DNA of 64,000 bases from Bacteroidota bacterium (GTDB lineage Bacteria > Bacteroidota > Ignavibacteria > 0-14-0-80-59-12), in assembly GCA_049973045.1 (NCBI GenBank), contig JBMFJZ010000001.1:120073-184072 (forward strand), read 5' to 3'. The translations under genes and the position numbers were made by a program. Under the pieces are notes generated by a model, which did no database searches, had not been told where the DNA came from, and saw only the letters and a list, made by a program, of their open reading frames with translations. Positions 1 through 14,542 of the stretch are shown here, piece by piece. Numbering within the stretch: the stretch's first letter is position 1; each line of letters begins with the position of its first letter.

Positions 1-112
1 TGTACACAATTTTCCCGCTCAGCTCCCAGTTTGGACTGACGGGGTTCTCGGCTTTCTTACAGGAAGAAATAGAAAGAAAAATAAGTGCGGCTACCAATAT
101 CTCTTTTCTCAT
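1..112 (-). CDS. 5' end (partial) of a second copy of the TolB-like lipoprotein gene
   Basis: ATG at 112..110 reads MRKEILVAALIFLSISSCKKAENPVSPNWELSGKIVY, identical to the start of 642..1697; continues beyond the window. Confidence 0.8.
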   Translation of the reverse strand, partial: MRKEILVAALIFLSISSCKKAENPVSPNWELSGKIVY

Positions 113-168
113 AGCGTGCCTCCAGGATGCATCTTCAGAAATTTACAAAAAAACATTGTGGTCTCAAG
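1..168. repeat. Direct repeat copy 1 (matches 1586..1753); runs off the window's left edge
   Basis: Identical to 1586.. over the first 136 nt; 4 mismatches (137, 157, 161, 163), all in the upstream non-coding part. Confidence 0.95.
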
Positions 169-598
169 TTCGCAAAAATGGCAAATCTGAAACCCCATTC
201 AGTATCAAGAACGCCTGTGATGATGGATTAGAGCCACCGTACTGAGCGGTGAAGGTTAGCGAGGCGGGGTTGACTTTAATAGGTAGTTGGTAATAGTAGC
301 GGGGGTAATAGACACCCGGTCCGGGTGGGCTGTCTGTATCCACGCAATATCTTGTACCTCTGTATGGATAGCACAATAACCCTGCTCGTGTTTTGTCCAC
401 GCACTGCCTCACAGCAATGGTGATTTCGGTCGTACATGCTGAAGGGATGTAGTACGACGTTGTGCTCCCGCACCAGGCGCCATCTATTCCACTTTCGCAA
501 CAAGCAGACGATGGCTTGTTCTGTGCGTGCGCTACGCGCAAGTAGAACGCTCCCCACATGATCAAGGCGACTGCACAAAAAATGTGTGAGAGCCTCAT
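164..598 (-). CDS. Secreted Cys-rich protein ending in the start of a BACON-like domain; probably truncated
   Basis: Signal peptide ending AHA; 7 Cys in mature N-terminal part; VNPASLTFTAQYGGSNPSSQ resembles BACON domain starts; RBS AGGAGG upstream; stop codon lies inside the repeat. Confidence 0.6.
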   Translation of the reverse strand: MRLSHIFCAVALIMWGAFYLRVAHAQNKPSSACCESGIDGAWCGSTTSYYIPSACTTEITIAVRQCVDKTRAGLLCYPYRGTRYCVDTDSPPGPGVYYPRYYYQLPIKVNPASLTFTAQYGGSNPSSQAFLILNGVSDLPFLRT

Positions 599-641
599 TG
601 TGTGATCCTCCTAATGGGTTAAGAATCTTTGGTTATTAGAT

Positions 642-1697
642 TTATCTTATCCATTGACAGTAGTGAAGTTCCTCTATTAGAGCTGATGAGGATGCATCAA
701 CGGCAGCAACTTTTCTAAGATCCGTACCATCCGGCCGTACTACATAGAGGCAATAACCTTCGTCGGGTGGTTTGCGCGAAAAGATGGCAATATATTTCCC
801 GTCCGGCGATGGAGTAGCGGCAAGGTTGCCAGCAAAACTACCCGAGATCAAACGGCCTGAGCCCCCCACATCGGGGGAGATAAGACAAACACCATACTTA
901 TACTTTGTAGTGTCGGAACTGAGAACGCATCGGCAGAGCAAATCACCGTTAGGCATCCAACTGAGAAACCGCTCGCAATTTTCCAATAGACGTGGAATTC
1001 TCTCATCGACGTCAATAACGCAAACGCCATTGACGCCGTATTTTGAGTAAGCAATTTTTCGCCCATCGGGGGACCACAGAAGCATCTGCCAGAAAAGCAA
1101 AGTGTCCAATGTCGTTATACCTGAATCATGGAGGGAGATAGTCCTAAGGCTGAAACTGTTAGACCCAGTGGAGTCCCACTTCCAAAGATAAGCGATTCTT
1201 TCTCCTGAAGGCGACCAACTGGGATTCGCCGCCGTGCTCCAGCGCGCAGAATCAGTAACAGCATGGATGTCGGTACCGTCCTGATTCATCACATAAAGTG
1301 AGAAGAGGATTTTTCTCGGCTCCCAGCCATGAAAAACTACTTTACGTCCATCCGGAGACCAATCCGGAGCGCTCTCGGAAACCCATGTCCGATTGGTAAG
1401 ATTTCTCATTCCACTTCCATCCACATTGATTCTGTAAATATCGAACGACCCAGCAGGTGAGATCTTTGAAAAAGCAACGGTCTTTCCATCCGGGGAGACA
1501 ACCGGCTCACCAGCTTCATCAACGAGAAGTCTTGGCACAGGATTTGAACCACTCAAATCAAGCAGATAAATTGACGTCCCCGTACTGTACACAATTTTCC
1601 CGCTCAGCTCCCAGTTTGGACTGACGGGGTTCTCGGCTTTCTTACAGGAAGAAATAGAAAGAAAAATAAGTGCGGCTACCAATATCTCTTTTCTCAT
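642..1697 (-). CDS. TolB-like (PD40/WD40-like) beta-propeller lipoprotein
   Basis: Lipobox-like ISSC; repeated SPDG/WSPDG blades; GGAGG RBS. Confidence 0.85.
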   Translation of the reverse strand: MRKEILVAALIFLSISSCKKAENPVSPNWELSGKIVYSTGTSIYLLDLSGSNPVPRLLVDEAGEPVVSPDGKTVAFSKISPAGSFDIYRINVDGSGMRNLTNRTWVSESAPDWSPDGRKVVFHGWEPRKILFSLYVMNQDGTDIHAVTDSARWSTAANPSWSPSGERIAYLWKWDSTGSNSFSLRTISLHDSGITTLDTLLFWQMLLWSPDGRKIAYSKYGVNGVCVIDVDERIPRLLENCERFLSWMPNGDLLCRCVLSSDTTKYKYGVCLISPDVGGSGRLISGSFAGNLAATPSPDGKYIAIFSRKPPDEGYCLYVVRPDGTDLRKVAAVDASSSALIEELHYCQWIR

Positions 1698-1753
1698 AGC
1701 GTGCCTCCAGGATGCATCTTCGGAAATTTACAAAAAAACATCGTGATGTCAAG
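1586..1753. repeat. Direct repeat copy 2 (matches 1..168): promoter, RBS and lipoprotein N-terminus
   Basis: Direct sequence comparison, offset 1585. Confidence 0.95.
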
Positions 1754-1808
1754 CATCCAAGCATCACATAAAGCGCATCTCTGTGTTAGCGAACGATCAA
1801 CTGAGCGT

Positions 1809-1837
1809 TTGCTTTTCAAGCAATGCTTTGGTATATT
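1809..1837 (+). promoter_or_regulatory. Putative sigma70 promoter of glmS
   Basis: TTGCTT-17 nt-TATATT, 35 nt before the ATG; same pattern at three tRNA genes. Confidence 0.6.
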
Positions 1838-1872
1838 AATCATAACTTGTTTAATTACAAACAATTATAGCT

Positions 1873-3708
1873 ATGTGCGGTATCATCGGTTATGCCGGAT
1901 ATCGACCCGTCTTTCCGATTCTCCTCGAAGGATTGAAGCGACTAGAGTATCGGGGGTATGACTCCGCAGGAATTGCAACTATCCTTGGTAATCATCTCTT
2001 GATTCACAAGAAAGCTGGCAAGGTGAGCCAATTGGGCTCGACGGCGCCTGCCGATTTTCAAAAAGCAACTATTGGTATTGGTCATACACGATGGGCAACG
2101 CATGGAGAACCCTCCGACTTGAATGCACACCCACATTTTGACTGTTCAAGAGAGATCGCTCTGGTTCACAATGGTATCATCGAGAATCATGCAGCTATTC
2201 GCGAGAAACTGGAATTGGAGGGTCATGGGTTCCGCACGCAAACCGATACAGAGGCGCTTGTTCATCTTATCGAAGAGATGGTTCACCATACCGGCGATCT
2301 TTTTGAAGCAGTGCGCTTGGCACTCCATGAAGTGACGGGGACCTATGGTATTGCAGTCATAAGTTCTCTGGAACCAGAGAAGCTCATTGCTGCTCGCCGA
2401 GGAAGCCCTCTTGTCCTTGGCGTTGGTGATGGGGAATTCTTCATCGCTTCTGACCCCGCTGCGATTATTGCCTATACCCGCCAGGTAATTTACCTGGAGG
2501 ATGGGGAAATTGCCTGCATTACTCCTGATGGATACACAATGCGGACATCAGATGATGAGGAAATTGTCAAGAAAGTTGAAGAGATCTCCCTTGAGCTTGC
2601 GCAAATTGAAAAAGGCGGTTATGAGCATTTCATGTTGAAGGAAATTCATGAACAGCCTGAAACCATCACAAATGCTCTTCGCGGACGTTTGATTGAAGAA
2701 GAAGGAACATCTCGCCTGGGAGGTCTTCGTCATCTGAGAGATCGTATTCTCAATGCAGATCGATTTATCATCACAGCATGCGGTACGTCGTGGCATGCAG
2801 GGTTGGTTGGTGAATACATGCTTGAGCAGTACGCACGCATTCCTGTTGAGGTGGAGTACGCTTCTGAATTTCGTTATCGTGATCCGATTCTTACTCCCAA
2901 TGATGTCGTATGGCTTATCAGTCAAAGCGGAGAGACAGCAGACACTGTTGCAGCATTGCGCGAAGCTCGAGCTCATGGGGCGACGGTCGTCGGGATTGTT
3001 AATGTGGTTGGAAGCACCATTGCTCGTGAGAGCGATGGTGGTGTTTATATCCATGCAGGGCCGGAAATTGGTGTTGCATCTACGAAAGCGTTCACGTCGC
3101 AGTTGGCGGTTCTTGCATTGATCACACTTATGTTGGGTCGTGCACGAGGTATCATTGACCGTGTGCAGGGACAACTCATCATCAGAGAATTACAAGCATT
3201 GCCAAAAAAGGTTGAAAGAATCTTCACACAGGAGCAAATTCTCAGGGAGATCGCGGATGAATTTCAGTCGACAAAGAATTTCCTCTACCTTGGTCGCGGA
3301 TACAATTTTCCCGTCGCACTGGAAGGTGCCTTGAAATTGAAAGAGATTTCCTACATTCACGCTGAAGGATATCCGGCTGCGGAGATGAAGCATGGTCCTA
3401 TAGCGCTTATTGATGAGAATATGCCAGTTGTTTTCATCACTCCGCGTGATGGAACGTATGAGAAAGTGCTCAGCAACATTCAGGAGGTGAAGGCTCGGAA
3501 GGGCAGGATTATCGCTGTTGCTGATGAAGATGATGATCAAATCAGTGGACTTGTAGATTTTGTCATTCGCGTTCCTCATACGTTGGATTTCCTCACACCT
3601 ATCCTCACAATTGTTCCACTTCAGCTCCTCGCATACTACATTGCCATTCGCCGTGGTTGTGACGTTGACCAGCCGCGGAACCTCGCGAAGAGCGTCACTG
3701 TGGAATGA
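1873..3708 (+). CDS. glmS: Glutamine--fructose-6-phosphate aminotransferase
   Basis: MCGIIG, HTRWATHG, SQSGET, C-terminal PRNLAKSVTVE. Confidence 0.99.
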   Translation: MCGIIGYAGYRPVFPILLEGLKRLEYRGYDSAGIATILGNHLLIHKKAGKVSQLGSTAPADFQKATIGIGHTRWATHGEPSDLNAHPHFDCSREIALVHNGIIENHAAIREKLELEGHGFRTQTDTEALVHLIEEMVHHTGDLFEAVRLALHEVTGTYGIAVISSLEPEKLIAARRGSPLVLGVGDGEFFIASDPAAIIAYTRQVIYLEDGEIACITPDGYTMRTSDDEEIVKKVEEISLELAQIEKGGYEHFMLKEIHEQPETITNALRGRLIEEEGTSRLGGLRHLRDRILNADRFIITACGTSWHAGLVGEYMLEQYARIPVEVEYASEFRYRDPILTPNDVVWLISQSGETADTVAALREARAHGATVVGIVNVVGSTIARESDGGVYIHAGPEIGVASTKAFTSQLAVLALITLMLGRARGIIDRVQGQLIIRELQALPKKVERIFTQEQILREIADEFQSTKNFLYLGRGYNFPVALEGALKLKEISYIHAEGYPAAEMKHGPIALIDENMPVVFITPRDGTYEKVLSNIQEVKARKGRIIAVADEDDDQISGLVDFVIRVPHTLDFLTPILTIVPLQLLAYYIAIRRGCDVDQPRNLAKSVTVE

Positions 3709-3748
3709 GAAGGTTTGAGAACATGCCTTGAGCATTTTATGCTCTGTG

Positions 3749-3763
3749 CCCGCCATAGGCGGG
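3749..3763. repeat. REP-like palindrome CCCGCC-ATA-GGCGGG
   Basis: Perfect hairpin; core CCGCC-N3-GGCGG also at 20361 and 52631. Confidence 0.55.
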
Positions 3764-3953
3764 ATGGAGTTGGAAATTGCAAATCGGGGATTTTAAGATG
3801 GAGAGAAGGGCAAGTGATCTTTCTGATCGATTATTAGAGTATCTTGTATCCACGAAGTTGCGGAACGTCATCTAACAAAGCTCCGCTTATCCTTTGGGAA
3901 AATCTACTCGTGGCAGCCTTTCTGAATGCAAGCCAATAAAGTATGGGGGTTCT

Positions 3954-5282
3954 ATGAATCGTCGTAAAGTTCTCATCATGGGGGCAGCTGGTCGGGATTT
4001 CCATAATTTTAATACAGTCTATCGTGATAATGAATTCTATGAGGTTGTTGCTTTCACTGCAACGCAAATACCGAATATTGAAGGGCGAAAATATCCTGCT
4101 GTGCTTGCCGGAGGGCTCTATCCGGAAGGTATACCAATCTATCCTGAATCGGAATTGGTGGACTTGATCAAAAAATTTGGTGTTGACGAGGTTGTATTTT
4201 CGTACTCTGATGTCTCGTTTCAGTACGTCATGGAACGCGCATCGCTGGCGATGGCAGCAGGTGCGGATTTCCGTTTGCTCGGAACAAGGCATACAATGTT
4301 GAAAGCCTCTGTTCCTGTAGTTGCCGTGGTGGCAATCCGGACTGGGTGCGGGAAGAGCCAAACTTCAAGGAAGGTTGCCAGACTTCTACGGGAGCAGGGG
4401 TTGCGTGTTGTGGCAGTCCGTCACCCCATGCCGTACGGTGACCTTGTCAAGCAGCGGATTCAGCGCTTCGGCACGATTGATGACTTGAAGAAGAACCATT
4501 GCACGGTTGAAGAGATGGAAGAGTATGAACCTCACATCATTCATGGCACAATTGTCTATGCAGGGGTTGACTATGAAGCCATTCTCCGAGAAGCTGAAAA
4601 AGAAGCTGACGTCATTGTGTGGGATGGCGGAAACAACGATATGCCGTTTTTCCGTCCAGATCTTATCATTACGGTCACCGATCCTCATCGCCCCGGTCAT
4701 GAACTTACGTATTACCCGGGCGAAACAAATTTGCGGATGGCGAATGTTGTTGTGATCAACAAGGTAGAAACAGCTCAGCCGGAAAACGTGAACATCGTTC
4801 GTGAAAATATCCGCCGGGTGAATCCATCGGCTACTATCGTGGAAGCCGCATCACCGATCAGGATAGACGATGAAAGGGCAATTCGCGGTAAACGTGTTCT
4901 CGTTGTTGAGGATGGTCCAACTCTTACGCACGGTGGGATGTCATACGGTGCTGGAATTCTGGCAGCAAAGAAATACGGCGCTGCAGAGATTGTAGATCCG
5001 CGCCCTTACGCTGTGAAATCAATTGCGGAGACATTTCAAAAATATCCAAACACAGGCTCACTTCTCCCGGCAATGGGATATGGGACTGAACAGGTTCGGG
5101 ATCTTGAGAAAACAATCAACCGCGTTCCATGCGATACGGTGATCATCGGTACGCCTGTCGACCTTCGCCGGGTGATTTCAATTAACAAACCAACTGTGCG
5201 CGTGACGTACGATCTCGAAGAGATTACGAAACCAGATCTTCGAGAGATTCTTAAGAATTTTATAGGTACGTTTCGACACTAA
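3954..5282 (+). CDS. arcE: Arginine synthetase-like P-loop protein (usually annotated predicted GTPase / cyclic 2,3-diphosphoglycerate synthase-like)
   Basis: GAAGRDFHNFN and FTATQIP N-terminus, P-loop GCGKSQT, WDGGNND, EDGPTLTHGGM; followed by OTC and carbamate kinase. ATG 3954 chosen over TTG 3894. Confidence 0.8.
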   Translation: MNRRKVLIMGAAGRDFHNFNTVYRDNEFYEVVAFTATQIPNIEGRKYPAVLAGGLYPEGIPIYPESELVDLIKKFGVDEVVFSYSDVSFQYVMERASLAMAAGADFRLLGTRHTMLKASVPVVAVVAIRTGCGKSQTSRKVARLLREQGLRVVAVRHPMPYGDLVKQRIQRFGTIDDLKKNHCTVEEMEEYEPHIIHGTIVYAGVDYEAILREAEKEADVIVWDGGNNDMPFFRPDLIITVTDPHRPGHELTYYPGETNLRMANVVVINKVETAQPENVNIVRENIRRVNPSATIVEAASPIRIDDERAIRGKRVLVVEDGPTLTHGGMSYGAGILAAKKYGAAEIVDPRPYAVKSIAETFQKYPNTGSLLPAMGYGTEQVRDLEKTINRVPCDTVIIGTPVDLRRVISINKPTVRVTYDLEEITKPDLREILKNFIGTFRH

Positions 5283-5313
5283 GTTGAAACTATCATCTGA
5301 ACAGGAGGATTCT

Positions 5314-6246
5314 GTGCGTACTAAAGATTTCATATCAATTCATGATCTAACCGTTGACGAATTTCGTTATATTTTCGACCTTGCTCGTGACATAAAGAGG
5401 CATCCGGAGGTCTATGCATCGTCCCTCAAAGGGAAAACGCTCGCAATGATCTTTGAGAAGCCCTCGCTTCGGACTCGGGTGACGTTCGAAGTTGGGATCC
5501 AGCAACTTGGTGGATTTGCTGTTTACCTTTCGCCGTCGGATATTTCGCTTGGAAAGCGTGAATCAGTTGCAGATGTGGCTAGGAATCTTTCACGCTGGGT
5601 TGATGCGATTATGATTCGTACATTTGGACATACTATTTGCACTGAGCTTGCGAAGCATGCTTCGGTTCCCGTCATTAATGGCTTGACCGATTTGCTGCAC
5701 CCATGTCAAGCAATGGCTGACTATTTTACGATGATGGAAATCAAAGGTTCGCTCAAAGGACTTTCAGTAGTGTTCATCGGCGATGGAAATAATGTCGCTC
5801 ACTCGTTGATGTTTGGTGCAGCAAAGTCAGGCGCTTTTCTTACCGTTGCAACGCCACGCGGCTATGAGCCAAAGAAAGAGATTGTTGACTTGGCTATGGA
5901 AGATGCAAAGGCGACCGGTGCTCAAATCCACCTTCTCAATGATCCAAGAGAAGCAATTCGTGGTGCCGATGTCGTTTATACTGATGTATGGGCAAGCATG
6001 GGACAGGAGGCAGAAGCCCACACGCGTCGAAGAGTGTTTGCTCCGTATCAGGTGAATGCTGATTTGATGAAGCTTGCAAAGCCTGATGCGATTTTCATGC
6101 ATTGTTTGCCAGCCCACCGTGGAGAGGAGGTTACCGATGAAGTAATTGATTCCCCGCAGTCTGTTGTGTATGATGAAGCAGAAAATCGTCTTCATGTGCA
6201 GAAAGCGATCATGGTTGATCTGATGAAAGAGCATCGAGGACAGTGA
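5314..6246 (+). CDS. arcB: Ornithine carbamoyltransferase
   Basis: FEKPSLRT, HPCQ, DVWASMG, HCLP; GTG start after GGAGG. Confidence 0.92.
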   Translation: MRTKDFISIHDLTVDEFRYIFDLARDIKRHPEVYASSLKGKTLAMIFEKPSLRTRVTFEVGIQQLGGFAVYLSPSDISLGKRESVADVARNLSRWVDAIMIRTFGHTICTELAKHASVPVINGLTDLLHPCQAMADYFTMMEIKGSLKGLSVVFIGDGNNVAHSLMFGAAKSGAFLTVATPRGYEPKKEIVDLAMEDAKATGAQIHLLNDPREAIRGADVVYTDVWASMGQEAEAHTRRRVFAPYQVNADLMKLAKPDAIFMHCLPAHRGEEVTDEVIDSPQSVVYDEAENRLHVQKAIMVDLMKEHRGQ

Positions 6247-7203
6247 ATGCCGAAGTTAGCCCTCATTGCTATCGGTGGCAATTCATTGATTCGCGCGGGA
6301 GAGCGCGGAACAATTGCCGAGCAGCGTGAGAATGCTATTTTGACGGCGCGGTATATTGCAGAGCTGATCCGACATGACTATTTCATTGTTCTTACCCATG
6401 GCAACGGGCCTCAAGTTGGTGCGCAGCTTTTGCGTTCGGAATTGGCTTCTACACAGGTGTACCCTGAGCCACTTGACGTTTGCGTCGCTGATACACAGGG
6501 TTCCATTGGATACGTGTTAGAACACGCGTTGCAACGGGCACTTGATGAAGCGAAGATACGTATTCCTATCGCGACAATTATCACGCAGGTCGTTGTTGAT
6601 GAGCACGACCCCGCTTTTTCTCAGCCGACGAAACCTGTAGGTCCATTTTATTCAGAGGAGGAAGCACGACGTAGGGAACGGGAGTACCAATGGAAGATGG
6701 TTGAAGATGCTGCACGTGGATACCGCCGCGTTGTCCCATCCCCGGAACCATTGGAAATTGTTGAGATCGAGGCAATTCGAAGTCTCGTGCTTGACGGCTA
6801 TATCGTTATTGCCGCGGGTGGTGGGGGCATCCCTGTTGTTCGACGCGATGGATACCTCGTGGGAGTGGAGGCAGTTATTGACAAGGATCGAGCTTCGGCA
6901 TTGCTTGCCCGCATGCTCAGTGTCGATACATTCATCATTTCCACCGACGCCGAGAAAGTGTATCTCAATTATAAAAAGCCTGGACAAACGGCGCTTCACT
7001 ACATTACCGCTTCTGAAGCTCAGCGATATTATGACGAGGGGCATTTTCCGCCGGGAAACATGGGACCGAAGATCGCTTCTGCAATTCGTTTCCTGCAAGA
7101 TGGTGGGAAAGAAGTCATTATCACCTCGCCTGAACATTTGCTTGATGCAGTTCTCGGGAAGACCGGAACACATATTTCTGTTGATCAAGGAGGCAGGCGA
7201 TGA
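6247..7203 (+). CDS. arcC: Carbamate kinase
   Basis: IAIGGNSL, THGNGPQVG, PTKPVG, GGGGIPV, VIDKD, GNMGPK. Confidence 0.97.
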   Translation: MPKLALIAIGGNSLIRAGERGTIAEQRENAILTARYIAELIRHDYFIVLTHGNGPQVGAQLLRSELASTQVYPEPLDVCVADTQGSIGYVLEHALQRALDEAKIRIPIATIITQVVVDEHDPAFSQPTKPVGPFYSEEEARRREREYQWKMVEDAARGYRRVVPSPEPLEIVEIEAIRSLVLDGYIVIAAGGGGIPVVRRDGYLVGVEAVIDKDRASALLARMLSVDTFIISTDAEKVYLNYKKPGQTALHYITASEAQRYYDEGHFPPGNMGPKIASAIRFLQDGGKEVIITSPEHLLDAVLGKTGTHISVDQGGRR

Positions 7204-8126
7204 AACTCCGACACGTCATTGAATCCCAGCAGTTCACGCTGCCGATGCTCATGGAGCTTTTCGCTCTCGCCGGACAAATGGAAAAGATTCTTGCTCGCGG
7301 TGGCACACAGGATTATCAATCAAAGATCATGGCGTCGTTGTTTTATGAGCCTTCAACGAGGACAAGATTTTCCTTCGAGTCGGCAATGCTCCGTCTTGGC
7401 GGACGTGTTCTTTCCACAGAGAATGCAAAAGTATTTTCTTCTGTCACTGCAGGCGAAACGCTGGAGGATACGGTTCGCGTTCTCAATAATTTTGCGGATG
7501 TTATTGTTCTTCGGCATGATGAAGTTGGGGGTGCTAAGCGCGCCGCTGCAGTTTCCTCAGTTCCTATTATCAACGCCGGAGACGGGAAGGGAGGACAGCA
7601 TCCGACCCAAGCGCTACTGGATTTGTACACTATCTACAAGGAGCGAGGTGCTATTGAAGGATTAAAGATCGCCATTGTTGGGGACCTTGCAAATGGTCGT
7701 ACGGCGCGATCACTTTCTTATCTGCTCGGTAAGTTCGATCGAGTTATGATCTACTTTGTTGCTCCAGCCGAGCTGCAAATGCGCTCCGACCTGCTTGATC
7801 ACCTCTCTGAACACAATGTCTGGTTTACATTAGAATCGGATTTGCCAAAGGTTATCTCTGAAGTTGATGTGGTGTATCAAACACGGATTGAGAAGGAACG
7901 GCTTGGGGTGCATGCCAATGACTACGAAGCTATCGCCCGGTCATATTTCCTGGATCGGTCGATGGTTGAGAAAATGAAACCGGATTCCATCATTCTACAC
8001 CCCTTGCCGCGACTTAATGAGATTTCTCCGGAAGTCGATGCCGATCATCGAGCCGCATATTTTCGGCAAGTGCGCAATGGGATTGCCGTGCGGATGGCGA
8101 TCTTAGCTATGGTGTTGGAGAGTTGA
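7200..8126 (+). CDS. pyrB: Aspartate carbamoyltransferase-like protein (plant-type) with non-canonical active-site residues
   Basis: FYEPSTRT, HPTQ, GDLANGRT, HPLPR; but SSVTAGE (no Lys84) and TRIEKER (Glu at Gln231). Confidence 0.75.
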   Translation: MKLRHVIESQQFTLPMLMELFALAGQMEKILARGGTQDYQSKIMASLFYEPSTRTRFSFESAMLRLGGRVLSTENAKVFSSVTAGETLEDTVRVLNNFADVIVLRHDEVGGAKRAAAVSSVPIINAGDGKGGQHPTQALLDLYTIYKERGAIEGLKIAIVGDLANGRTARSLSYLLGKFDRVMIYFVAPAELQMRSDLLDHLSEHNVWFTLESDLPKVISEVDVVYQTRIEKERLGVHANDYEAIARSYFLDRSMVEKMKPDSIILHPLPRLNEISPEVDADHRAAYFRQVRNGIAVRMAILAMVLES

Positions 8127-8179
8127 GTTTTTTGAAGAAAAATTATATCTTAAATAATTCCGATATATAGGAGGGACGC

Positions 8180-9016
8180 GTGGTGGAGAATCACCCAAAA
8201 CTTTGGGCTCTCATTCTGGGAGCTTCCAGTGGATTTGGTGAAGCGACAGCAATTGAGCTGTCGAAGATAGGATACAACGTTTTCGGAGTTCATCTCGATC
8301 GGGCAGCAACAATGTCGAATGTGGACCGAATCATCTCCGAGATCACATCGGTAGGATCGGAGGCCGTATTTTATAACGTGAACGCTGCTGATCCGTCGAA
8401 ACGGGAAGAGGTTCTAGATGACATTGCGAATCGCCTTGGGAAGAACCCCGATGCTCATATAAAGGTGTTCTTACACTCTCTCGCCTTTGGGACATTGAAG
8501 CCATTCATTGCGGATGATCCGAAGGACGCAATCACTCAGGCTCAACTGGAGATGACCCTTGATGTGATGGCGAACAGTCTTGTCTACTGGGTTCAAGGGC
8601 TACTACAGAGGAAATTGATGCGACGGGGCGGACGCATTTTTGCAATGACAAGTACCGGAGGCCATACAGTGATGCCGTTCTATGGTGGGGTTTCTGCGGC
8701 GAAGGCAGCGCTTGAATCCCATATCAGGCAACTTGCAATGGAATTGGGTCCACTTGATATTACTGCAAACGCAATCATGGCGGGGGTGACTGATACGCCA
8801 GCACTCCGGAAGATCCCTGGCGGACTCAGGCTATTGAAGGGGGCGGAGTATAAGAATCCCCATGGGCGACCCACTAAGCCCGAAGATGTTGCAAAAGCTA
8901 TTGCGATCTTAAGTGATGACCGATCGTACTGGATTTCTGGCAATGTGATCAAGGTGGATGGTGGAGAAGATATTGTCGGTTTCGTTGCGCGTGAAGGTCC
9001 TATCCACATCGATTGA
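8180..9016 (+). CDS. SDR oxidoreductase, FabL-like enoyl-ACP reductase
   Basis: GASSGFG, YGGVSAAKAALE, TDTPAL, VDGG. Confidence 0.8.
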   Translation: MVENHPKLWALILGASSGFGEATAIELSKIGYNVFGVHLDRAATMSNVDRIISEITSVGSEAVFYNVNAADPSKREEVLDDIANRLGKNPDAHIKVFLHSLAFGTLKPFIADDPKDAITQAQLEMTLDVMANSLVYWVQGLLQRKLMRRGGRIFAMTSTGGHTVMPFYGGVSAAKAALESHIRQLAMELGPLDITANAIMAGVTDTPALRKIPGGLRLLKGAEYKNPHGRPTKPEDVAKAIAILSDDRSYWISGNVIKVDGGEDIVGFVAREGPIHID

Positions 9017-9078
9017 TCGCTCTTGGTTATGTATTCTCCAAGAACTTCGCTATGTCTTCATAAATGGAACGAAAGGAT

Positions 9079-9969
9079 ATGGGGTACAAGTCAGTTGTCT
9101 GCGTAAAACAGGTGCCGGATACCTCTAATATTTCCGGTGAGGTAATGAAACCTGACGGAACAGTCAACCGTGCAAAATTGCCAGCGATCTTTAATCCTGA
9201 TGATATGGTGGCTTTAGAACTCGCTCTGCAGGTGAGGGATGAGTACGGAGGGAGGGTTTACGTGATCACAATGGGACCTCCACCAGCAGCCGAGGTACTC
9301 AGACAGGCGCTCTACATGGGAGCAGATGAGGTTGTCTTGATCAGCGACCGCCGTTTTGCGGGAGCAGATACTTTAGCGACTTCCTATGCTCTGAGTATGG
9401 CGATTCGGAAGATAGGCAACATTGACCTTGTCTTTTGTGGTCGACAAGCAATTGATGGGGATACGGCGCAGGTGGGTCCACAGCTTGCTGAAAAGTTAGG
9501 GATTCCACAGGTAACGTACGTAGAGAAGATAGAAAAGATCGAGGGTGGTTGGCTTCATGCAAAACGGAGAATCGACGGTGGCTATGAGCGTGTCCGCGCA
9601 ACATTGCCGGTGCTTCTCACAGTGTTTGGTGACGCAGCCATTCCGCGCCCGTTCAATGCAAAACTTATGATGGAAAAGAAACGCGCCCGCTCTCGATTCG
9701 AACTTGAACGTATGAGTGGAAACAACCCTCTCTCATTTTTCTATAATGACCCCGGAGCACTTGAGAAGAAAGGTTTACTCATTTTCACTTGGGGTGTAGA
9801 AGACATAAATGCAGAAGAGGAGAGGTGTGGTCTCAAGGGTTCACCAACTCAGGTGTACAAAGTTGAAAATGTTGTGCTCACCAGCCCAGAGCGAAAGAGG
9901 TACGAGCCAACGAAGGCAGACTTAGAGAAGCTGATCGATGAACTAATGACTGATCACATATTTGGTTAA
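9079..9969 (+). CDS. etfB: Electron transfer flavoprotein beta subunit
   Basis: VCVKQVPDT, NPDD, FAGADTLATS, DGDTAQVGP. Confidence 0.95.
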   Translation: MGYKSVVCVKQVPDTSNISGEVMKPDGTVNRAKLPAIFNPDDMVALELALQVRDEYGGRVYVITMGPPPAAEVLRQALYMGADEVVLISDRRFAGADTLATSYALSMAIRKIGNIDLVFCGRQAIDGDTAQVGPQLAEKLGIPQVTYVEKIEKIEGGWLHAKRRIDGGYERVRATLPVLLTVFGDAAIPRPFNAKLMMEKKRARSRFELERMSGNNPLSFFYNDPGALEKKGLLIFTWGVEDINAEEERCGLKGSPTQVYKVENVVLTSPERKRYEPTKADLEKLIDELMTDHIFG

Positions 9970-9974
9970 AGGCA

Positions 9975-10991
9975 ATGGAAAAAATCTCCGGTATTTGGGT
10001 TTTTGCTGAACAGGAAGAGGGGTCACTCCATGATGTCGGGCTGGAGTTGCTTTCTAAAGGACGTAAGTTAGCGACGACACTTCAAGCACCGTTGGCAGCG
10101 GTCCTTATCGGACATAAAGTTCGGCATCTTGTTCGGACCCTTTACTCCTATGGTGCAGACTATGTATTCCTTGCTGATCATGAGGAGTTGGAGCATTATC
10201 TCACCTTGCCCTATGCGAAGATTCTCACTCGACTTGTGCAATTTCATGAACCTCGTGTGGTACTTTTCGGAGCGACATCGATTGGAAGAGACCTTGCACC
10301 ACGCGTGGCATCAAACACGCGCTCAGGATTAACGGCTGATTGCACGGACCTGCAAATTGCAGATGTGACCCAGCGGGGGAAACTGTATAAGAACTTGCTT
10401 TTGCAAATCAGGCCAGCATTTGGGGGTAACATCATTGCAACGATTATCTCCCCGGAGTCAAGAACCCAAATGGCGACCGTGCGTGAGGGGGTGATGCGCG
10501 TCGAAAAGCCAGATTCTGGTCACCAAGGGAAAACTATTGAAGTGGATGTAAATCTAAGTGAAGAGGAATTCGCTGTCCAGCTCGTGGAGCGGTTTAAGGA
10601 GAAGCCAAAGGTAAACCTCAAGGCTGCCAATATCATTGTGGCTGGCGGTTTCGGTGTTGGCAAAAAGGAAAACTTTCGGCTTATCGAGGAGCTGGCAAAT
10701 GTATTGGGCGGGGCAGTTGGGGCTTCCCGGGCTGCTGTCGATGCAGGGTTTATCAGCCGCGACCACCAGATTGGCCAAACAGGGACCACTGTTCGTCCTA
10801 AGCTTTATATCGCATGTGGAATCTCTGGAGCTATCCAGCACCGCGCAGGGATGAGCGAGTCGAAGAAGATCATCGCGATCAACAAAGATCCGCACGCTCC
10901 GATCTTCGACATTGCTCATTACGGCATCGTGGGGGACCTCGTTGAGGTGATCCCGAAGTTCATTGAGGTCTACAGAGAGAAATCGAGATAG
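9975..10991 (+). CDS. etfA: Electron transfer flavoprotein alpha subunit
   Basis: GLTADCT, RPAFGGN, QIGQTG, GISGAIQH, INKD. Confidence 0.96.
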   Translation: MEKISGIWVFAEQEEGSLHDVGLELLSKGRKLATTLQAPLAAVLIGHKVRHLVRTLYSYGADYVFLADHEELEHYLTLPYAKILTRLVQFHEPRVVLFGATSIGRDLAPRVASNTRSGLTADCTDLQIADVTQRGKLYKNLLLQIRPAFGGNIIATIISPESRTQMATVREGVMRVEKPDSGHQGKTIEVDVNLSEEEFAVQLVERFKEKPKVNLKAANIIVAGGFGVGKKENFRLIEELANVLGGAVGASRAAVDAGFISRDHQIGQTGTTVRPKLYIACGISGAIQHRAGMSESKKIIAINKDPHAPIFDIAHYGIVGDLVEVIPKFIEVYREKSR

Positions 10992-11029
10992 AATCCTGCT
11001 CGAAGTATTCGCACGGTAAAGGAGCGAGT

Positions 11030-12757
11030 ATGTCAAACTTTTTCAAGGACAACGAGGATCTTCTTTTTCAATTTGAGAATCTGCACCTTGAAGATGTGAT
11101 TCGGTCGCGAGAGAATGATTTTGCAGAAGCGAAATCAGCCGAAGGGCGAACTTATGCGCCTCTCGACGTTGAGGATGCAATGGATAATTATCGGCGTGTT
11201 CTAGAACTGGTAGGGGATATCGCAGGGGAATTCGTTGCGCCGCGAGCTCCTGAAGTCGACCGCGAAGGAGCACATTTCGAGAACGGGAGGGTCACGTATG
11301 CGAAAGGGACCGCAGAAGCCCTCGAGCGGCTTTCGCAAGCTGGACTCATGGGGATGACACTCCCAAGAGCATACGGCGGACTCAATTTCCCAACGACAAT
11401 CTACATGATGGCGATCGAGATAATCTCTCGTGCCGATGCTGCTCTAATGAATATCTTTGGGCTGCAAGATATCGCGGAGACTATCCACCGGTTTGCTGAT
11501 GCAGAAATCCAACGCGAATATTTACCGAAGTTCTGCAAGGGAGAGGTCACTGGTGCAATGGCACTGACCGAACCCGATGCGGGCTCCGACTTGCAAGCTG
11601 TCAAGACCCGTGCATATCAAGATGAAGCTGGGAATTGGTACCTGAGCGGTGTGAAGCGATTTATCACCAATGGTTCCGGAGATGTGTTACTTGTGCTTGC
11701 GCGCTCGGAAGAAGGGACTGAAGATGCGCGGGGATTAAGCCTTTTTGTGTGTAACCGTGATGGTGTTCAAGTGCGGCGTATTGAGAACAAGCTCGGCATT
11801 CATGGTTCGCCAACTTGCGAGATTCAATTTAACGATACGCCGTGCAAACTTATCGGGGAGAGAAAGCGTGGCCTTATTACCTATGTCATGTCGTTAATGA
11901 ACGGTGCGCGCTTAGGTGTTGCAGCCCAGGCTCTTGGGATCGCCCAGGCTGCCTATGTCGAGGCGTTCAAGTACGCACACGAGCGTGAGCAATTTGGTAA
12001 GGCAATTTGTCATTTCCCTGCCGTCGCTGAAATGCTGATTAATATGAAGGTGAATATCGAAGCTTCACGTTCCCTGCTGTATGCGACAGCGAAGGCAGTC
12101 GATAGAAGAGATGAACTGGAACGTCAATTAAATCGGGCGAAAGAGCTTGGCCAGCCGTTCAAGGAATTAAATGATAAGCTCAAGCAAGCGACACGTGTCA
12201 CCGCATTCCTCACTCCCTATACGAAGTACATGATCACAGAACTTGCAAATCAGATTTGCTACGATGCGATCCAGGTGCACGGCGGAACTGGATTCATGCA
12301 GGAGTTTAATGTCGAGCGGCATTATCGGGATGTTCGCATCACCACAATTTACGAAGGAACCTCACAGCTTCAGATCGTTGCAGCAACAGGCGGAGCTACA
12401 ACCGGTGTTCTGGATTCTCTTCTTGATGAATACGAACAAGAGGCTTACACCGGCGAGCTCCAGCTGCTCCATCAACAGTTGATTGAAATCAGGCAGCGAT
12501 ACAAAGAGTGTCGGGACTATTTAGCGAGAAAGAACGACCCTGCCTACCAAGAACTACGGTCGCGCAATCTAGTTGAACTGTATGGCTCGCTGTATGTTGG
12601 CTATCTCATCCTTAATGAAGCGAAAGTCTCAGAGAAGAAATTGCTCGTCGCGAAGAAATACATCTCCGAGATCTATGCGAAAGCCCTCATGCACGCGGAA
12701 CATATACTCCACGGGTACGATACAATGCTAATGTACAGATTTGTGACCGCAGTTTAG
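11030..12757 (+). CDS. Acyl-CoA dehydrogenase with C-terminal extension
   Basis: ALTEPDAGSD, KRFITNG, KLGIHGSPT, HGGTGF, IYEGTSQ. Confidence 0.95.
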   Translation: MSNFFKDNEDLLFQFENLHLEDVIRSRENDFAEAKSAEGRTYAPLDVEDAMDNYRRVLELVGDIAGEFVAPRAPEVDREGAHFENGRVTYAKGTAEALERLSQAGLMGMTLPRAYGGLNFPTTIYMMAIEIISRADAALMNIFGLQDIAETIHRFADAEIQREYLPKFCKGEVTGAMALTEPDAGSDLQAVKTRAYQDEAGNWYLSGVKRFITNGSGDVLLVLARSEEGTEDARGLSLFVCNRDGVQVRRIENKLGIHGSPTCEIQFNDTPCKLIGERKRGLITYVMSLMNGARLGVAAQALGIAQAAYVEAFKYAHEREQFGKAICHFPAVAEMLINMKVNIEASRSLLYATAKAVDRRDELERQLNRAKELGQPFKELNDKLKQATRVTAFLTPYTKYMITELANQICYDAIQVHGGTGFMQEFNVERHYRDVRITTIYEGTSQLQIVAATGGATTGVLDSLLDEYEQEAYTGELQLLHQQLIEIRQRYKECRDYLARKNDPAYQELRSRNLVELYGSLYVGYLILNEAKVSEKKLLVAKKYISEIYAKALMHAEHILHGYDTMLMYRFVTAV

Positions 12758-12990
12758 TTTCAGCGCCTGAGCGCGATGAAAGAAATCCATAGATCACAAT
12801 GATCGATGCTTTCTCTTCTCTGTTTGTTGAGTAACCCATTATCTTCTATTGATGCTGCCTACCGCTGAGGGTGTTTCGAACGATCCTTAGGTGGCAAAAG
12901 CAGGTCAAACTGATCATGCCTCCTACGGTCCTGGGTGGAAGATTCTCCGCGCGGGTGTTCATTGAGGAACTTGCAAAGGCAGCTATCAAC

Positions 12991-13019
12991 TTGATTTTGT
13001 TCGCGCTGCTTGATATATT
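12991..13019 (+). promoter_or_regulatory. Putative sigma70 promoter of tRNA-Phe
   Basis: TTGATT-17 nt-TATATT. Confidence 0.6.
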
Positions 13020-13061
13020 TCAAATTGCCTCTGGATTTCTTCAGAAGCATAAGGAACAAGC

Positions 13062-13134
13062 GGACAGGTAGCTCAGTTGGTAGAGCAATGGACTGAAAAT
13101 CCATGTGTCGGCGGTTCGATTCCGCCCCTGTCCA
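13062..13134 (+). tRNA. tRNA-Phe(GAA), CCA not encoded
   Basis: Acceptor GGACAGG/CCTGTCC, anticodon arm ATGGA-CT-GAA-AA-TCCAT, T-loop TTCGATT. Confidence 0.97.
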
Positions 13135-13363
13135 CATCGTTGAGTTTAGCCCGCATACTTCTCCGCATCAGAGCTTTGTCTCTCAGGGGAACCAGTCCCC
13201 ACGAAAGAGAGAGCCTATAAACATGCTCCCCATCCTTTCATCATTAGCCTTGTTTGATGAATAACCACTTGCTGGGCACATCAGTTCACCCCGAAGGTTT
13301 TCGTTTGCGTAGTTCTCAAAAGCAAAAGTAGAGATTGACTAATGATTGAATGCAGAGAGTAAA

Positions 13364-14542
13364 ATGACAAGATCTCTTACTTCCTCTGAAAAACCGCTGC
13401 AAGCTCAGCAGAGTACCGATACCGTTATCCTTGAGCATCAACACTTTCAGCAGCTTCTGGACGTTTTGAGGGGAAAAGGGTATCAGCCTATTGGACCCAC
13501 GATTCGGGATAGTGCTATTGTGTATGATGAGCTAACTTCTGTTGCTGATTTACCGATTGGCTGGACGGATGAGCAGGAAGCAAGCACATATCGTCTGAAA
13601 AAGCGACAAGATAAAGCATTTTTCGGTTATAACGTTGGTCCCCAGTCCTGGAAGCAATTTCTCTTCCCACCAAGAATCCGACTGTTTGCTGCCAAGAAGA
13701 ATGGGAAAGGTTGGGAGATAGAGACCGATCCTTCAAACACTCCAGCAATGCGTTACGCTTTCGTTGGTGTCCGGTCTTGTGAACTTAAGGCTATTGAAAT
13801 CCAGGACAAGGTTTTCAACAACGGGGAATATCTTGATCCGATCTACAAAGTTCGGCGAGAGGGCATCTTCATTGTTGCTGTCAATTGCACTCAGGCAGGG
13901 GGCACGTGTTTTTGTGCCTCTATGGGGACGGGCCCAAAGGTTCGCGGAGCGTTTGACTTAGCGTTGACGGAAGTAATTGATGAAGCGGTTTCTTACTTTG
14001 TTGTTGAGATTGGGAGTGAGCGTGGAGCCGAGGTCATCAGTGAAGTTCCACATCGAAGCGCTGAGAAGCATCATACCGATGCCGCCGATCGAATCGTGGA
14101 GAACACGGCTCAACGTATGGGCAGGACCCTGGACATAAATGATCTCAGGGAGCTTTTGTTATCTCACATCGAGAGTCCTCACTGGGACGATGTGGCACGC
14201 CGCTGTTTAACGTGTACAAACTGTACGTTGGTTTGCCCAACCTGTTTTTGCTCAACCATTGAGGATGTTACGGATTTAAATGGAGAACGTGCTGAGCGCT
14301 GGAGACGATGGGATTCCTGCTTCACAGTGGACTACGCGAGAGTTGCAGGAGGAAATTTTCGACTTTCCCCTCGAGCTCGGTATCGTCACTGGCTAACCCA
14401 TAAACTTGCATCGTGGATTGAGCAGTTTGGCACATGGGGGTGCGTGGGCTGCGGGCGCTGTATAACGTGGTGCCCGGTCGGCATTGATATCACGACTGAA
14501 GTTGACGCAATCCGTAATAGTCAAGCGAAAAACCAAGGATAA
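13364..14542 (+). CDS. hydB: Group 3b [NiFe]-hydrogenase (sulfhydrogenase) beta subunit, 4Fe-4S
   Basis: [16 protein letters not shown] and [16 protein letters not shown]; start uncertain (13346 or 13364). Confidence 0.88.

Follow-up and report, generated by a model that had tools for sequence, protein, structure and literature searches.

The gene discussed here lies in a 64,000-nucleotide stretch of DNA from a Bacteroidota bacterium of the class Ignavibacteria (GenBank assembly GCA_049973045.1, contig JBMFJZ010000001.1, forward strand, positions 120,073 to 184,072), which we call the window. It follows a carbamate kinase gene and resembles the gene for aspartate carbamoyltransferase (ATCase); hence we use ATCL as shorthand for this ATCase-like gene, and P0001 for its product. 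In our opinion ATCL represents a clade which, judging from its pattern of conservation, is very probably no longer selected for aspartate, carries an acid at position 231 and coexists with a true PyrB. The ground for this view is that Lys84, Asp162, Gln231 and Arg234 have been released. Membership of the ATCase family, the disappearance of the aspartate determinants, a preserved carbamoyl phosphate (CP) site, the presence of a separate pyrB and the linkage to carbamate kinase can be regarded as established. As to function, our best reading, which we hold tentatively, is that ATCL would be a transcarbamylase for a substrate other than aspartate, probably phosphorolytic, that feeds its partner carbamate kinase. 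Residue numbers refer to E. coli PyrB (the K-12 protein was the alignment reference for P0001) unless stated otherwise.

The family membership of P0001 is easy to illustrate. It scores 142.8 bits with PF02729 and 99.5 bits with PF00185 of Pfam, and 323 bits with TIGR00670, the NCBIfam equivalog for ATCase, with a cut-off of 236.95. The best solved relative is PDB 6ypo, 'PYRB' (E 9.3e-103), which we take to be the Arabidopsis enzyme. All public sources that name proteins of this type use aspartate carbamoyltransferase. The translation holds LFYEPSTRT, TENAKVFSS, GDLANGRT, DVVYQTRI, HPTQ and HPLP, aligned with 6ypo. In the alignment to E. coli PyrB, P0001 retains Ser52, Thr53, Arg54, Thr55, Ser80, Arg105, His134 and Gln137, as well as Arg167, Arg229, Pro266, Leu267 and Pro268, and it differs at 84 (Ala) and at 231 (Glu). 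Direct reading of the DNA confirms what a sequence-only reading had listed, that is, the motifs, the codons of Ala84 and Glu231 and the ATGA overlap with arcC, the carbamate kinase gene (Table 1).

The CP-site motifs S[TR]RT, HP[ST]Q and HP[LG]P (Barba 2013, Table 1) are all matched, as STRT, HPTQ and HPLP; the ATCase motif RxQxER is not, as P0001 has RIEKER instead. According to the available part of PMC4581275, RxQxER of the 240s loop is present in all known ATCases; Ser80 and Lys84 (both starred there) are among the CP-site residues, Lys84 coming from the 80s loop of the adjacent chain; and Arg167, Arg229 and Gln231 make up the aspartate site. A role like that of ornithine carbamoyltransferase (OTC) was also considered and rejected: P0001 reaches 152.5 bits with NF001986 (cut-off 306) and 133.7 bits with TIGR00658 (cut-off 280.85), and it has HPLP rather than HCLP.

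The two substitutions are not a peculiarity of one assembly. Among the matches listed for P0001, 120 homologues with 67-97% identity carry Glu or Asp at position 231 in every case and Gln in none, and Lys84 occurs once; their source names are Kryptonia, Ignavibacteria and Bacteroidota metagenome genomes. Because 231 is acidic in all 120, neither chance nor an assembly error accounts for the substitutions at 84 and 231, and the earlier suggestion that they are family-wide holds. The choice of these two residues as the altered sites stands only in part. The acid at 231 is indeed constant among these homologues, but Ala84 itself is unconserved, the position varying freely (G, M, S, Y, A, T, E, H and others), and Asp162 and Arg234 have been released as well.

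A set of 80 public loci gives the same picture over a wider range. In it, 38 loci with at least 59% identity have arc genes, 37 of them with arcC directly upstream (the exception is L019), and in 37 of the 38 the alignment has neither Lys84 nor Gln231. Another 41 loci, more distant (57% identity or less) and without arc genes, keep Lys84 in 41/41 and Gln231 in 39/41; they come from the candidate phyla radiation (CPR), DPANN, Leptospiraceae, Nitrososphaerales and others.

Phylogenetic reconstruction supports a single origin of the clade. In a FastTree tree of 183 rows, 40 proteins of this type form one group (SH-like 98). A quick IQ-TREE run (LG+C20+F+G4) on 71 rows, consisting of 26 clade members (6 of them degenerate, see below) and 45 others picked to span the FastTree tree, places the 26 on one side of a branch with an SH-aLRT of 99. 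The clade is nested among ATCases with Lys84 and Gln231, namely plant-type, CPR and DPANN-like ones, with the exact sister group unsure since both trees were rooted only on the distant PyrB of the source genome; the pseudo-ATCases of Barba 2013 were not among the rows.

When 45 non-redundant clade members are compared with 135 relatives that had been selected for Lys84 and Gln231, the residues conserved in at least 85% of the relatives but in less than 60% of the clade are Lys84, Asp162 and Arg234, with Gln231 replaced. Conserved positions specific to the clade include, in P0001 numbering, E8, S9, Q10, T13, P15, M27, R33-G34-G35-T36 and D38, and further R114, K130, R181, Q193, D197 and W208; 101 columns are invariant among 28 diverse members.

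Over 68 species-level loci the string of CP-site residues (STRT, Ser80, Arg105, His134, Gln137, HPLP) is intact in 63. Of the remaining five, three are truncated or carry a single altered residue; the other two, both of the purine type described below, are degenerate. Arg167 is kept in 68/68 and Arg229 in 66/68. Position 231 is D in 32 loci, E in 28, N in 5, G in 2 and H in 1, hence acidic in 60/68 and never Gln. The other positions of the network are looser: 84 is E in 24, G in 8, H in 8, S in 6, A in 5, T in 4 and K in 3, with others besides; 162 is A in 33, D in 17, N in 17 and E in 1; Arg occupies 234 in 50. Loci of the rocD type have a 240s loop shorter by about four residues.

If ATCL is not an ordinary ATCase, a canonical pyrB is to be expected elsewhere, and indeed there is one. 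A search of the whole source genome with TIGR00670 gives three matches: ATCL, a second gene (312.6 bits) and, below the cut-off, arcB. The second gene (G000:C1:104985-105872) is flanked by PyrR (242 bits) and dihydroorotase (TIGR00857, 399 bits). This pyrR-pyrB-pyrC copy scores 394 bits with NF002032 and carries Lys84 and Gln231; P0001 is 33% identical to it. Eight of eight further carrier genomes likewise have, besides ATCL, a second ATCase-family gene that is above the cut-off or cut by a contig end. The 80s- and 240s-loop motifs of these second copies were read in five of the eight, with Lys84 in four and one too truncated, and four adjoin pyrR and/or pyrC; both Lys84 and Gln231 were read in the source genome only. 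Hence the situation by which pseudo-ATCases are recognized, an ATCase-annotated paralogue beside an authentic PyrB and in a different gene context, is found in 9/9 carrier genomes. Given the separate pyrR-pyrB-pyrC with Lys84 and Gln231, and the second gene in other carriers, ATCL is, as far as sequence and context tell, not the housekeeping ATCase of the cell. It had also been stated that pyrI, pyrC and carAB are missing from the window. This agrees with what we find, as far as our searches go: tblastn detects no pyrC, pyrR or second pyrB homologue in the 64-kb window, the PyrI family has no match in the whole source genome, and carB is on another contig.

The arginine side of the inventory is relevant too. 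The source genome encodes argG and argH, and arginine deiminase has no match in the whole genome. The arcB of the window is the sole OTC-like match in the whole-genome TIGR00670 search, and G002, G003 and G005 likewise have the OTC of the arc cluster only. In the source genome the same OTC probably serves both arginine synthesis and breakdown, and a co-transcribed carbamate kinase could drain biosynthetic CP unless it is gated.

The linkage to carbamate kinase is the other part of the evidence. Our class sample comprises 251 genomes, and an ATCL-type gene, counted at 58% identity or more, is present in 69 of them, an ArcE homologue in 150 and a carbamate kinase in 137. In 67 of the 69 carriers ATCL is immediately preceded by the kinase gene on the same strand, 0-350 bp apart; the two without it are G234, where the gene is at a contig end, and G215. 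The original claim that this protein is not an ordinary ATCase and is coupled to carbamate kinase holds. ArcE is present in 65 of the 69 carriers, and was found neither in G195, G079 and G184, all three fragmented, nor in G132 (7 contigs).

The gene order falls into several types. Among the 68 loci, 32 have arcE-arcB-arcC-ATCL and 30 have arcB-arcC-ATCL-rocD(-arcE), where rocD encodes ornithine-oxo-acid transaminase (TIGR01885, 565 bits); two have arcC-ATCL only, two have other contexts, and two (L101 of G132 and L137 of G079) are of a purine type. In the purine type the order is selenium (Se)-dependent xanthine dehydrogenase, YgeW, a pyridoxal phosphate (PLP) enzyme, YgeY, carbamate kinase, ATCL and MocA, with no arcE or arcB; this context recurs in the public locus L021, where the YgeW-like gene is shorter. 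Thus the co-occurrence with arc genes that the sequence-only reading had proposed is correct for the arc-linked public loci, but it does not extend to the purine-type clusters. Because ATCL follows the kinase in these clusters as well, its constant partner is carbamate kinase and not the arcE-arcB-arcC set.

Several further loci deserve mention. The PLP enzyme between YgeW and YgeY has 482 aa (L101 10786-12234, minus strand; L021 3261-4709, plus strand); it is weakly cysteine-synthase-like (109-118 bits, far under the cut-offs), and it does not readily qualify as a diaminopropionate ammonia-lyase of the YgeX type. Three loci from records titled 'uncultured Hyphomicrobiales' (L037-L039, about 60% identity) have arcB-arcC-ATCL, L038 also rocD-arcE; labelled as Alphaproteobacteria, they cluster with rocD-type loci of the Bacteroidota-like class, which suggests either lateral transfer or mislabelled bins. 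In two other families of the class an ATCase with Lys84 and Gln231, about 40% identical to P0001 and the only ATCase-family gene of its genome, is found next to arc genes: in L102 (G082:C1:166000-177000, genes 2988-6041) the order is arcC-arcB-ATCase-fabD, and in L100 (G032:C2:504000-519000, genes 6135-8547) the ATCase directly follows arcE, with no carbamate kinase found by the query used. Such an arrangement may be a precursor of the kinase/ATCL pairing, or a CP-centred biosynthetic operon.

A further tree, of 56 carbamate kinase rows, took in all 21 kinases not linked to ATCL and every second one that is. All ATCL-linked kinases in it fall into one clade, within which the three of purine type group together (SH-aLRT 99). 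The kinase tree thus mirrors the ATCL tree, from which it follows that the pair moved together. Eleven kinases inside the ATCL-linked clade are without ATCL. In L174 (G115:C1:211000-215493) a piece of the ATCL C-terminus, 55 residues long and 55% identical, is left just downstream of arcC (about 2967-3131, minus strand) in a genome devoid of ATCL in other respects, and the sister species of the genus have no trace of ATCL and keep arcB-arcC; comparison of these sequences indicates a recent loss in that genus.

For the pair of carbamate kinase and ATCL, complex prediction gave a score of 0.52, the best of 3 controls being 0.00, with partner pLDDT of at least 87 and at least 95% of contacts agreeing between runs. 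In the calibration, whose counts hold here only roughly since our own alignments were used, the mark is reached by 58/80 solved complexes and 2/110 mismatched pairs, and scores of 0.60 or less comprise only 7 of the 80 solved complexes and both mismatches that passed. The prediction hence lends weak support to a physical complex.

One subclade changes the balance of the argument. In the protein of G132 (L101 7615-8538, minus strand) SGLLT replaces STRT, DPLS replaces HPLP, and Ser80 and Arg229 have become Phe and Gly; 33 of the 99 listed database homologues of this protein belong to the same degenerate set (members P0393-P0414, P0416-P0423, P0434, P0438 and P0439, plus loci L101 and L137). In 33/33 Arg54 is Leu or Val, Ser80 is Phe and Glu86 is Asp, and His265 and Arg229 are each lost in 21/33. 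On the other hand, Thr55, Arg105, HPTQ and Arg167 are kept in 33/33, as is Glu or Asp at 231; M27, R33-G34-G35-T36, D38, K130, R181, D197 and W208 are kept in 33/33 each, clade-specific residues overall in 32-33/33 (Gln193 and the N-terminal positions less strictly), and the length is exactly 307 aa in 24/33. Between the ATCLs of G132 and G079 pN is 0.14 and pS 0.78, with pN of 0.04-0.10 in neighbouring genes; as synonymous sites are saturated (pS 0.72-0.78), we give pN and pS rather than dN/dS. The IQ-TREE tree has the subclade monophyletic and sister to L021, whose CP site is intact, and its members of known context stand behind carbamate kinase in Se-xanthine-dehydrogenase/YgeW/YgeY clusters. 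Judged by these patterns, the changes are directional rather than random decay, and purifying selection persists. The residues left would correspond to the carbamoyl side of CP; this division is our own reading of the residue list in the available part of PMC4581275.

How, then, might the protein work? In our preferred reading, ATCL would bind CP through an unchanged ATCase-type CP site, with Arg167 and Arg229 holding carboxylates. The network of aspartate recognition and domain closure (Lys84, Asp162, Gln231, Arg234) would have been given up and 231 made acidic; the substrate would then be a ureido compound or amine distinct from those of the aspartate reaction, neutral or basic and bearing a carboxylate. 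The reaction would run phosphorolytically, and the CP so made would pass to the carbamate kinase translated immediately ahead of ATCL, probably inside a physical complex, for ATP formation. Of this scheme we infer that there is catalysis and in which direction, what kind of acceptor is used, and that the kinase is bound. There is a precedent in an ATCase paralogue adjoining carbamate kinase which, according to the available part of PMC4016543, proved to be a ureidoglycine transcarbamylase of catabolic function. For the purine-type clusters, the accessible portion of bioRxiv 10.1101/2025.04.24.650524 describes a pathway containing 3-amino-2-ureidopropanoate, which YgeY hydrolyses without energy gain. 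By analogy this compound, a basic counterpart of carbamoyl-aspartate with an amine for the beta-carboxylate, would be a fitting substrate in those clusters.

Several observations weigh against this reading. The acceptor side is not uniform, as the subclades differ in residue 84, in Asp162 and Arg234 and in how long the 240s loop is; since Asp162 and Arg234 are unconserved and the loop length varies, the alignments reveal no single new conserved acceptor pocket across the clade. Arginine-type operons (62/68 loci) show no evident source of a second ureido compound, and it is awkward that one family occurs in both arginine-type and purine-type clusters, which ill suits one fixed substrate. Further, ATCL is dispensable in close relatives that keep arcB-arcC, and the degenerate subclade, by its residue pattern, shows that ATCL has value without a phosphate-binding CP site. 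Given that this subclade lost Arg54 and Ser80, the option of a non-catalytic partner of carbamate kinase gains real weight, and we regard it as a close rival, somewhat less likely than the enzyme. ATCL would then be a trimeric CP binder of ATCase fold (a sensor, a holder of labile CP or a channel) that docks on the kinase, and one use of it could be to stop the kinase from draining biosynthetic CP where the operon OTC is the sole OTC. The source genome, which has carB, argG and argH and in arcB its only OTC-like match, is such a case. Occupancy of an ATCase or OTCase site shields CP from thermal breakdown. Kinase adjacency survives three operon architectures; the purine-type kinases, nested in the ATCL-associated kinase clade, mirror the ATCL tree as if the pair moved as a unit; the degenerate subclade keeps the adjacency, the clade residues and purifying selection without Arg54 and Ser80; acceptor-side residues drift; and the complex prediction (0.52 against 0.00) points weakly the same way. 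However, scores in this band are usually wrong except with a good prior. Moreover, pseudoenzymes usually lose catalytic residues and here all are intact in 63/68 species, Arg167 and Arg229 would be kept without obvious reason, a stoichiometric CP binder brings no flux gain unless hand-over is direct, and close relatives manage with the kinase alone. A more specific version is in our view less likely than not: an ATCase trimer turned into a dedicated subunit that traps, senses or channels CP and moves along with the kinase among unrelated ureido pathways that yield ATP (of the arginine-synthetase and anaerobic purine types), with one lineage a true pseudoenzyme keeping only the carbamoyl-binding half (Thr55, Arg105, His134, Gln137, Arg167). 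The enzyme and partner readings can both hold, provided that the enzyme docks on the kinase as well.

The remaining explanations seem to us less convincing. ATCL could be a biosynthetic CP sink, that is, an active transcarbamylase that carbamoylates a non-aspartate acceptor with CP from arginine or purine breakdown and yields a product, not ATP. The CP site is intact, as are Arg167 and Arg229, carbamoylation is the usual direction of enzymes of the ATCase family, and enzymes carbamoylating diaminopropionate and diaminobutyrate are known from the part of PMC4581275 available. It is nevertheless improbable: no biosynthetic genes lie alongside, the neighbours being catabolic (rocD in 30 loci, carbamate kinase in 67/69 genomes), and tight coupling to a CP-destroying enzyme argues against competition for CP. 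The sequence-only reading had counted the diaminopropionate enzyme as ATCase-derived; the same part of PMC4581275 groups it by its HDLP motif and not with ATCases. A second PyrB, still an aspartate transcarbamylase, that directs catabolic CP into pyrimidines and in which other residues take over from Lys84 and Gln231, is very unlikely. P0001 is above the TIGR00670 cut-off (323 against 237 bits), the sources naming it say ATCase, and L100 and L102, where a canonical sole ATCase adjoins arc genes, show that an arc-pyrimidine link exists in the class. Yet 41/41 relatives without arc genes keep Lys84 and 39/41 keep Gln231, an acidic 231 should repel aspartate, and every carrier genome tested has a second ATCase-family gene; substitutions of Lys84 nearly abolish the activity of E. 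coli ATCase. Finally, a decaying duplicate without function is scarcely credible and effectively refuted by conservation, although ATCL was lost in certain close relatives and left a remnant in L174. The proteins are 57-82% identical over 68 species-level loci with open frames and conservation on par with arcB and arcC, the stop codons counted sit at the 3' end of matches running past residue 306, and the 101 invariant columns among diverse members tell against decay.

It is useful to compare ATCL with known systems. With PyrB of the ATC II/plant-type branch it shares the fold, both Pfam domains, STRT, Arg105, HPTQ, Arg167, Arg229 and HPLP; it differs by the lack of Lys84 and Gln231, by Asp162 and Arg234 being unconstrained in the clade, and by its place outside a pyr context, behind carbamate kinase, with the true pyrB elsewhere. 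Closer in kind are the pseudo-ATCases of Barba et al. (2013, PMC4016543), which include the ureidoglycine transcarbamylase Rxyl_2847. As far as the accessible part of that paper goes, these are likewise annotated as ATCase, coexist with an authentic PyrB and retain STRT and HPTQ, and their group 1 also adjoins carbamate kinase in a catabolic cluster. The same part defines group 1 by HPLA and AIA/AIS/SIA, group 2 by H[ST]LP and GX[SC], and group 3 by HSLP and VXP. Compared by this motif table, ATCL, with HPLP and RIE and hence with Arg229 kept, fits none of the three, and the context described there is of an allantoinase type, unlike the arginine-synthetase or YgeW type of ATCL. By its motifs ATCL would be a fourth group of pseudo-ATCases. 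It would be an ATCase paralogue retargeted within carbamate-kinase-linked catabolism, which is a kind already known.

The arginine-type operon resembles the ArcE-OTC-carbamate kinase pathway as presented in the main texts of Michimori et al. (2024, PMC11032458) and PMC13260591: the window likewise has arcE-like, arcB and arcC genes, and the genome no arginine deiminase. Those main texts (2024 and 2026) do not describe an ATCase-like gene in the arginine synthetase cluster, and pyrB terms occur only in the methods gene list of the 2026 paper. The purine type recalls the YgeW/YqeA module of the anaerobic 2,8-dioxopurine (uric acid) pathway, in which a transcarbamylase acts on a ureido intermediate to yield CP, from which carbamate kinase forms ATP. 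In such clusters (L021, L101, L137) genes of the ATCL clade follow carbamate kinase; YgeW, however, is a knotted transcarbamylase of another branch, unlike ATCL, and the ATCLs of these clusters include those with a degenerate CP site. Nor is an ATCase-like gene mentioned in the available parts of two preprints on anaerobic uric acid breakdown. In open papers and preprints (subscription journals being outside the scope), pseudo-ATCases were found only in Barba et al., besides one unrelated paper, and no account of a second pyrB came up.

Table 1. Features of the window around ATCL
Feature	Positions	Strand	Description and basis
glmS	1873-3708		
arcE-like	3954-5282	+	putative arginine synthetase, 442 aa from ATG at 3954; family names, weak structural match, position
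arcB	5284-6246	+	ornithine carbamoyltransferase; NF001986 451 bits, cut-off 306
arcC	6247-7203	+	carbamate kinase; TIGR00746 379 bits, cut-off 358
Ribosome-binding site of ATCL	7187-7193	+	aaggagg within the arcC 3' end, 7-13 nt upstream of ATG; sequence reading
ATGA	7200-7203	+	ATCL start overlapping arcC stop; translational coupling; sequence reading
ATCL	7200-8126	+	protein P0001, 308 aa; PF02729 and PF00185 (OTCace_N, OTCace), TIGR00670
Ala84 codon	7449-7451	+	GCA in tct tct gtc act GCA ggc gaa = SSVTAGE; ATCases have Lys84
Glu231 codon	7890-7892	+	GAG in aca cgg att GAG aag gaa cgg = TRIEKER; ATCases have Gln231 of RxQxER
SDR, EtfB, EtfA, acyl-CoA dehydrogenase	8180-12757	+	after ATCL; SDR FabL-like, under cut-off; acyl-CoA dehydrogenase of 575 aa
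tRNA	13062-13134	+	Rfam RF00005, 76 bits; after the acyl-CoA dehydrogenase gene, overlapping a mechanical minus-strand ORF (12859-13137)

Within the window, arcE-like, arcB and arcC are consecutive, and the products of arcB and arcC are above their family cut-offs. The first gene is a putative ArcE homologue by family names, a weak match to a cyclic 2,3-diphosphoglycerate (cDPG) synthetase and position: identical 442-aa proteins are on record, relatives are named 'cyclic 2,3-diphosphoglycerate synthase' or 'predicted GTPase', and the match to cDPG synthetase 9sxb has an E of 1.3e-4. The genes from SDR to the acyl-CoA dehydrogenase were considered as part of the ATCL unit and rejected. They are about 78-81% identical in the nearest relative (L007/L105) and not shared with most other carriers; they stand behind ATCL in the nearest relatives only, not in Kryptonia-type or rocD-type loci, and the upstream glmS is likewise kept in a portion of the loci only. 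Positions 1-14000 contain no riboswitch ahead of the operon at Rfam gathering thresholds, the tRNA being the sole match, and promoter and terminator scans of 3600-9100 were at the level of shuffled sequence (7 against a mean of 7.7, and 5 against 5.0).

What does this mean for the class? Because these proteins go by the name of ATCase in public sources, about a quarter of the sampled genomes (69/251) appear to carry two PyrBs, and metabolic reconstructions there will be wrong. ATCL is the unexplained fourth gene of the recently discovered arginine synthetase pathway and also an unexplained gene of certain anaerobic purine clusters, and both pathways give one ATP per ureido group. If ATCL is an enzyme, the transcarbamylase repertoire would be widened, and the clade would illustrate from nature that a few changes suffice to retarget an ATCase. 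As a kinase partner, ATCL would represent a rare case of a bacterial metabolic enzyme recruited as a pseudoenzyme, and it would offer a way to learn how a catabolic carbamate kinase is prevented from depleting biosynthetic CP in the cell.

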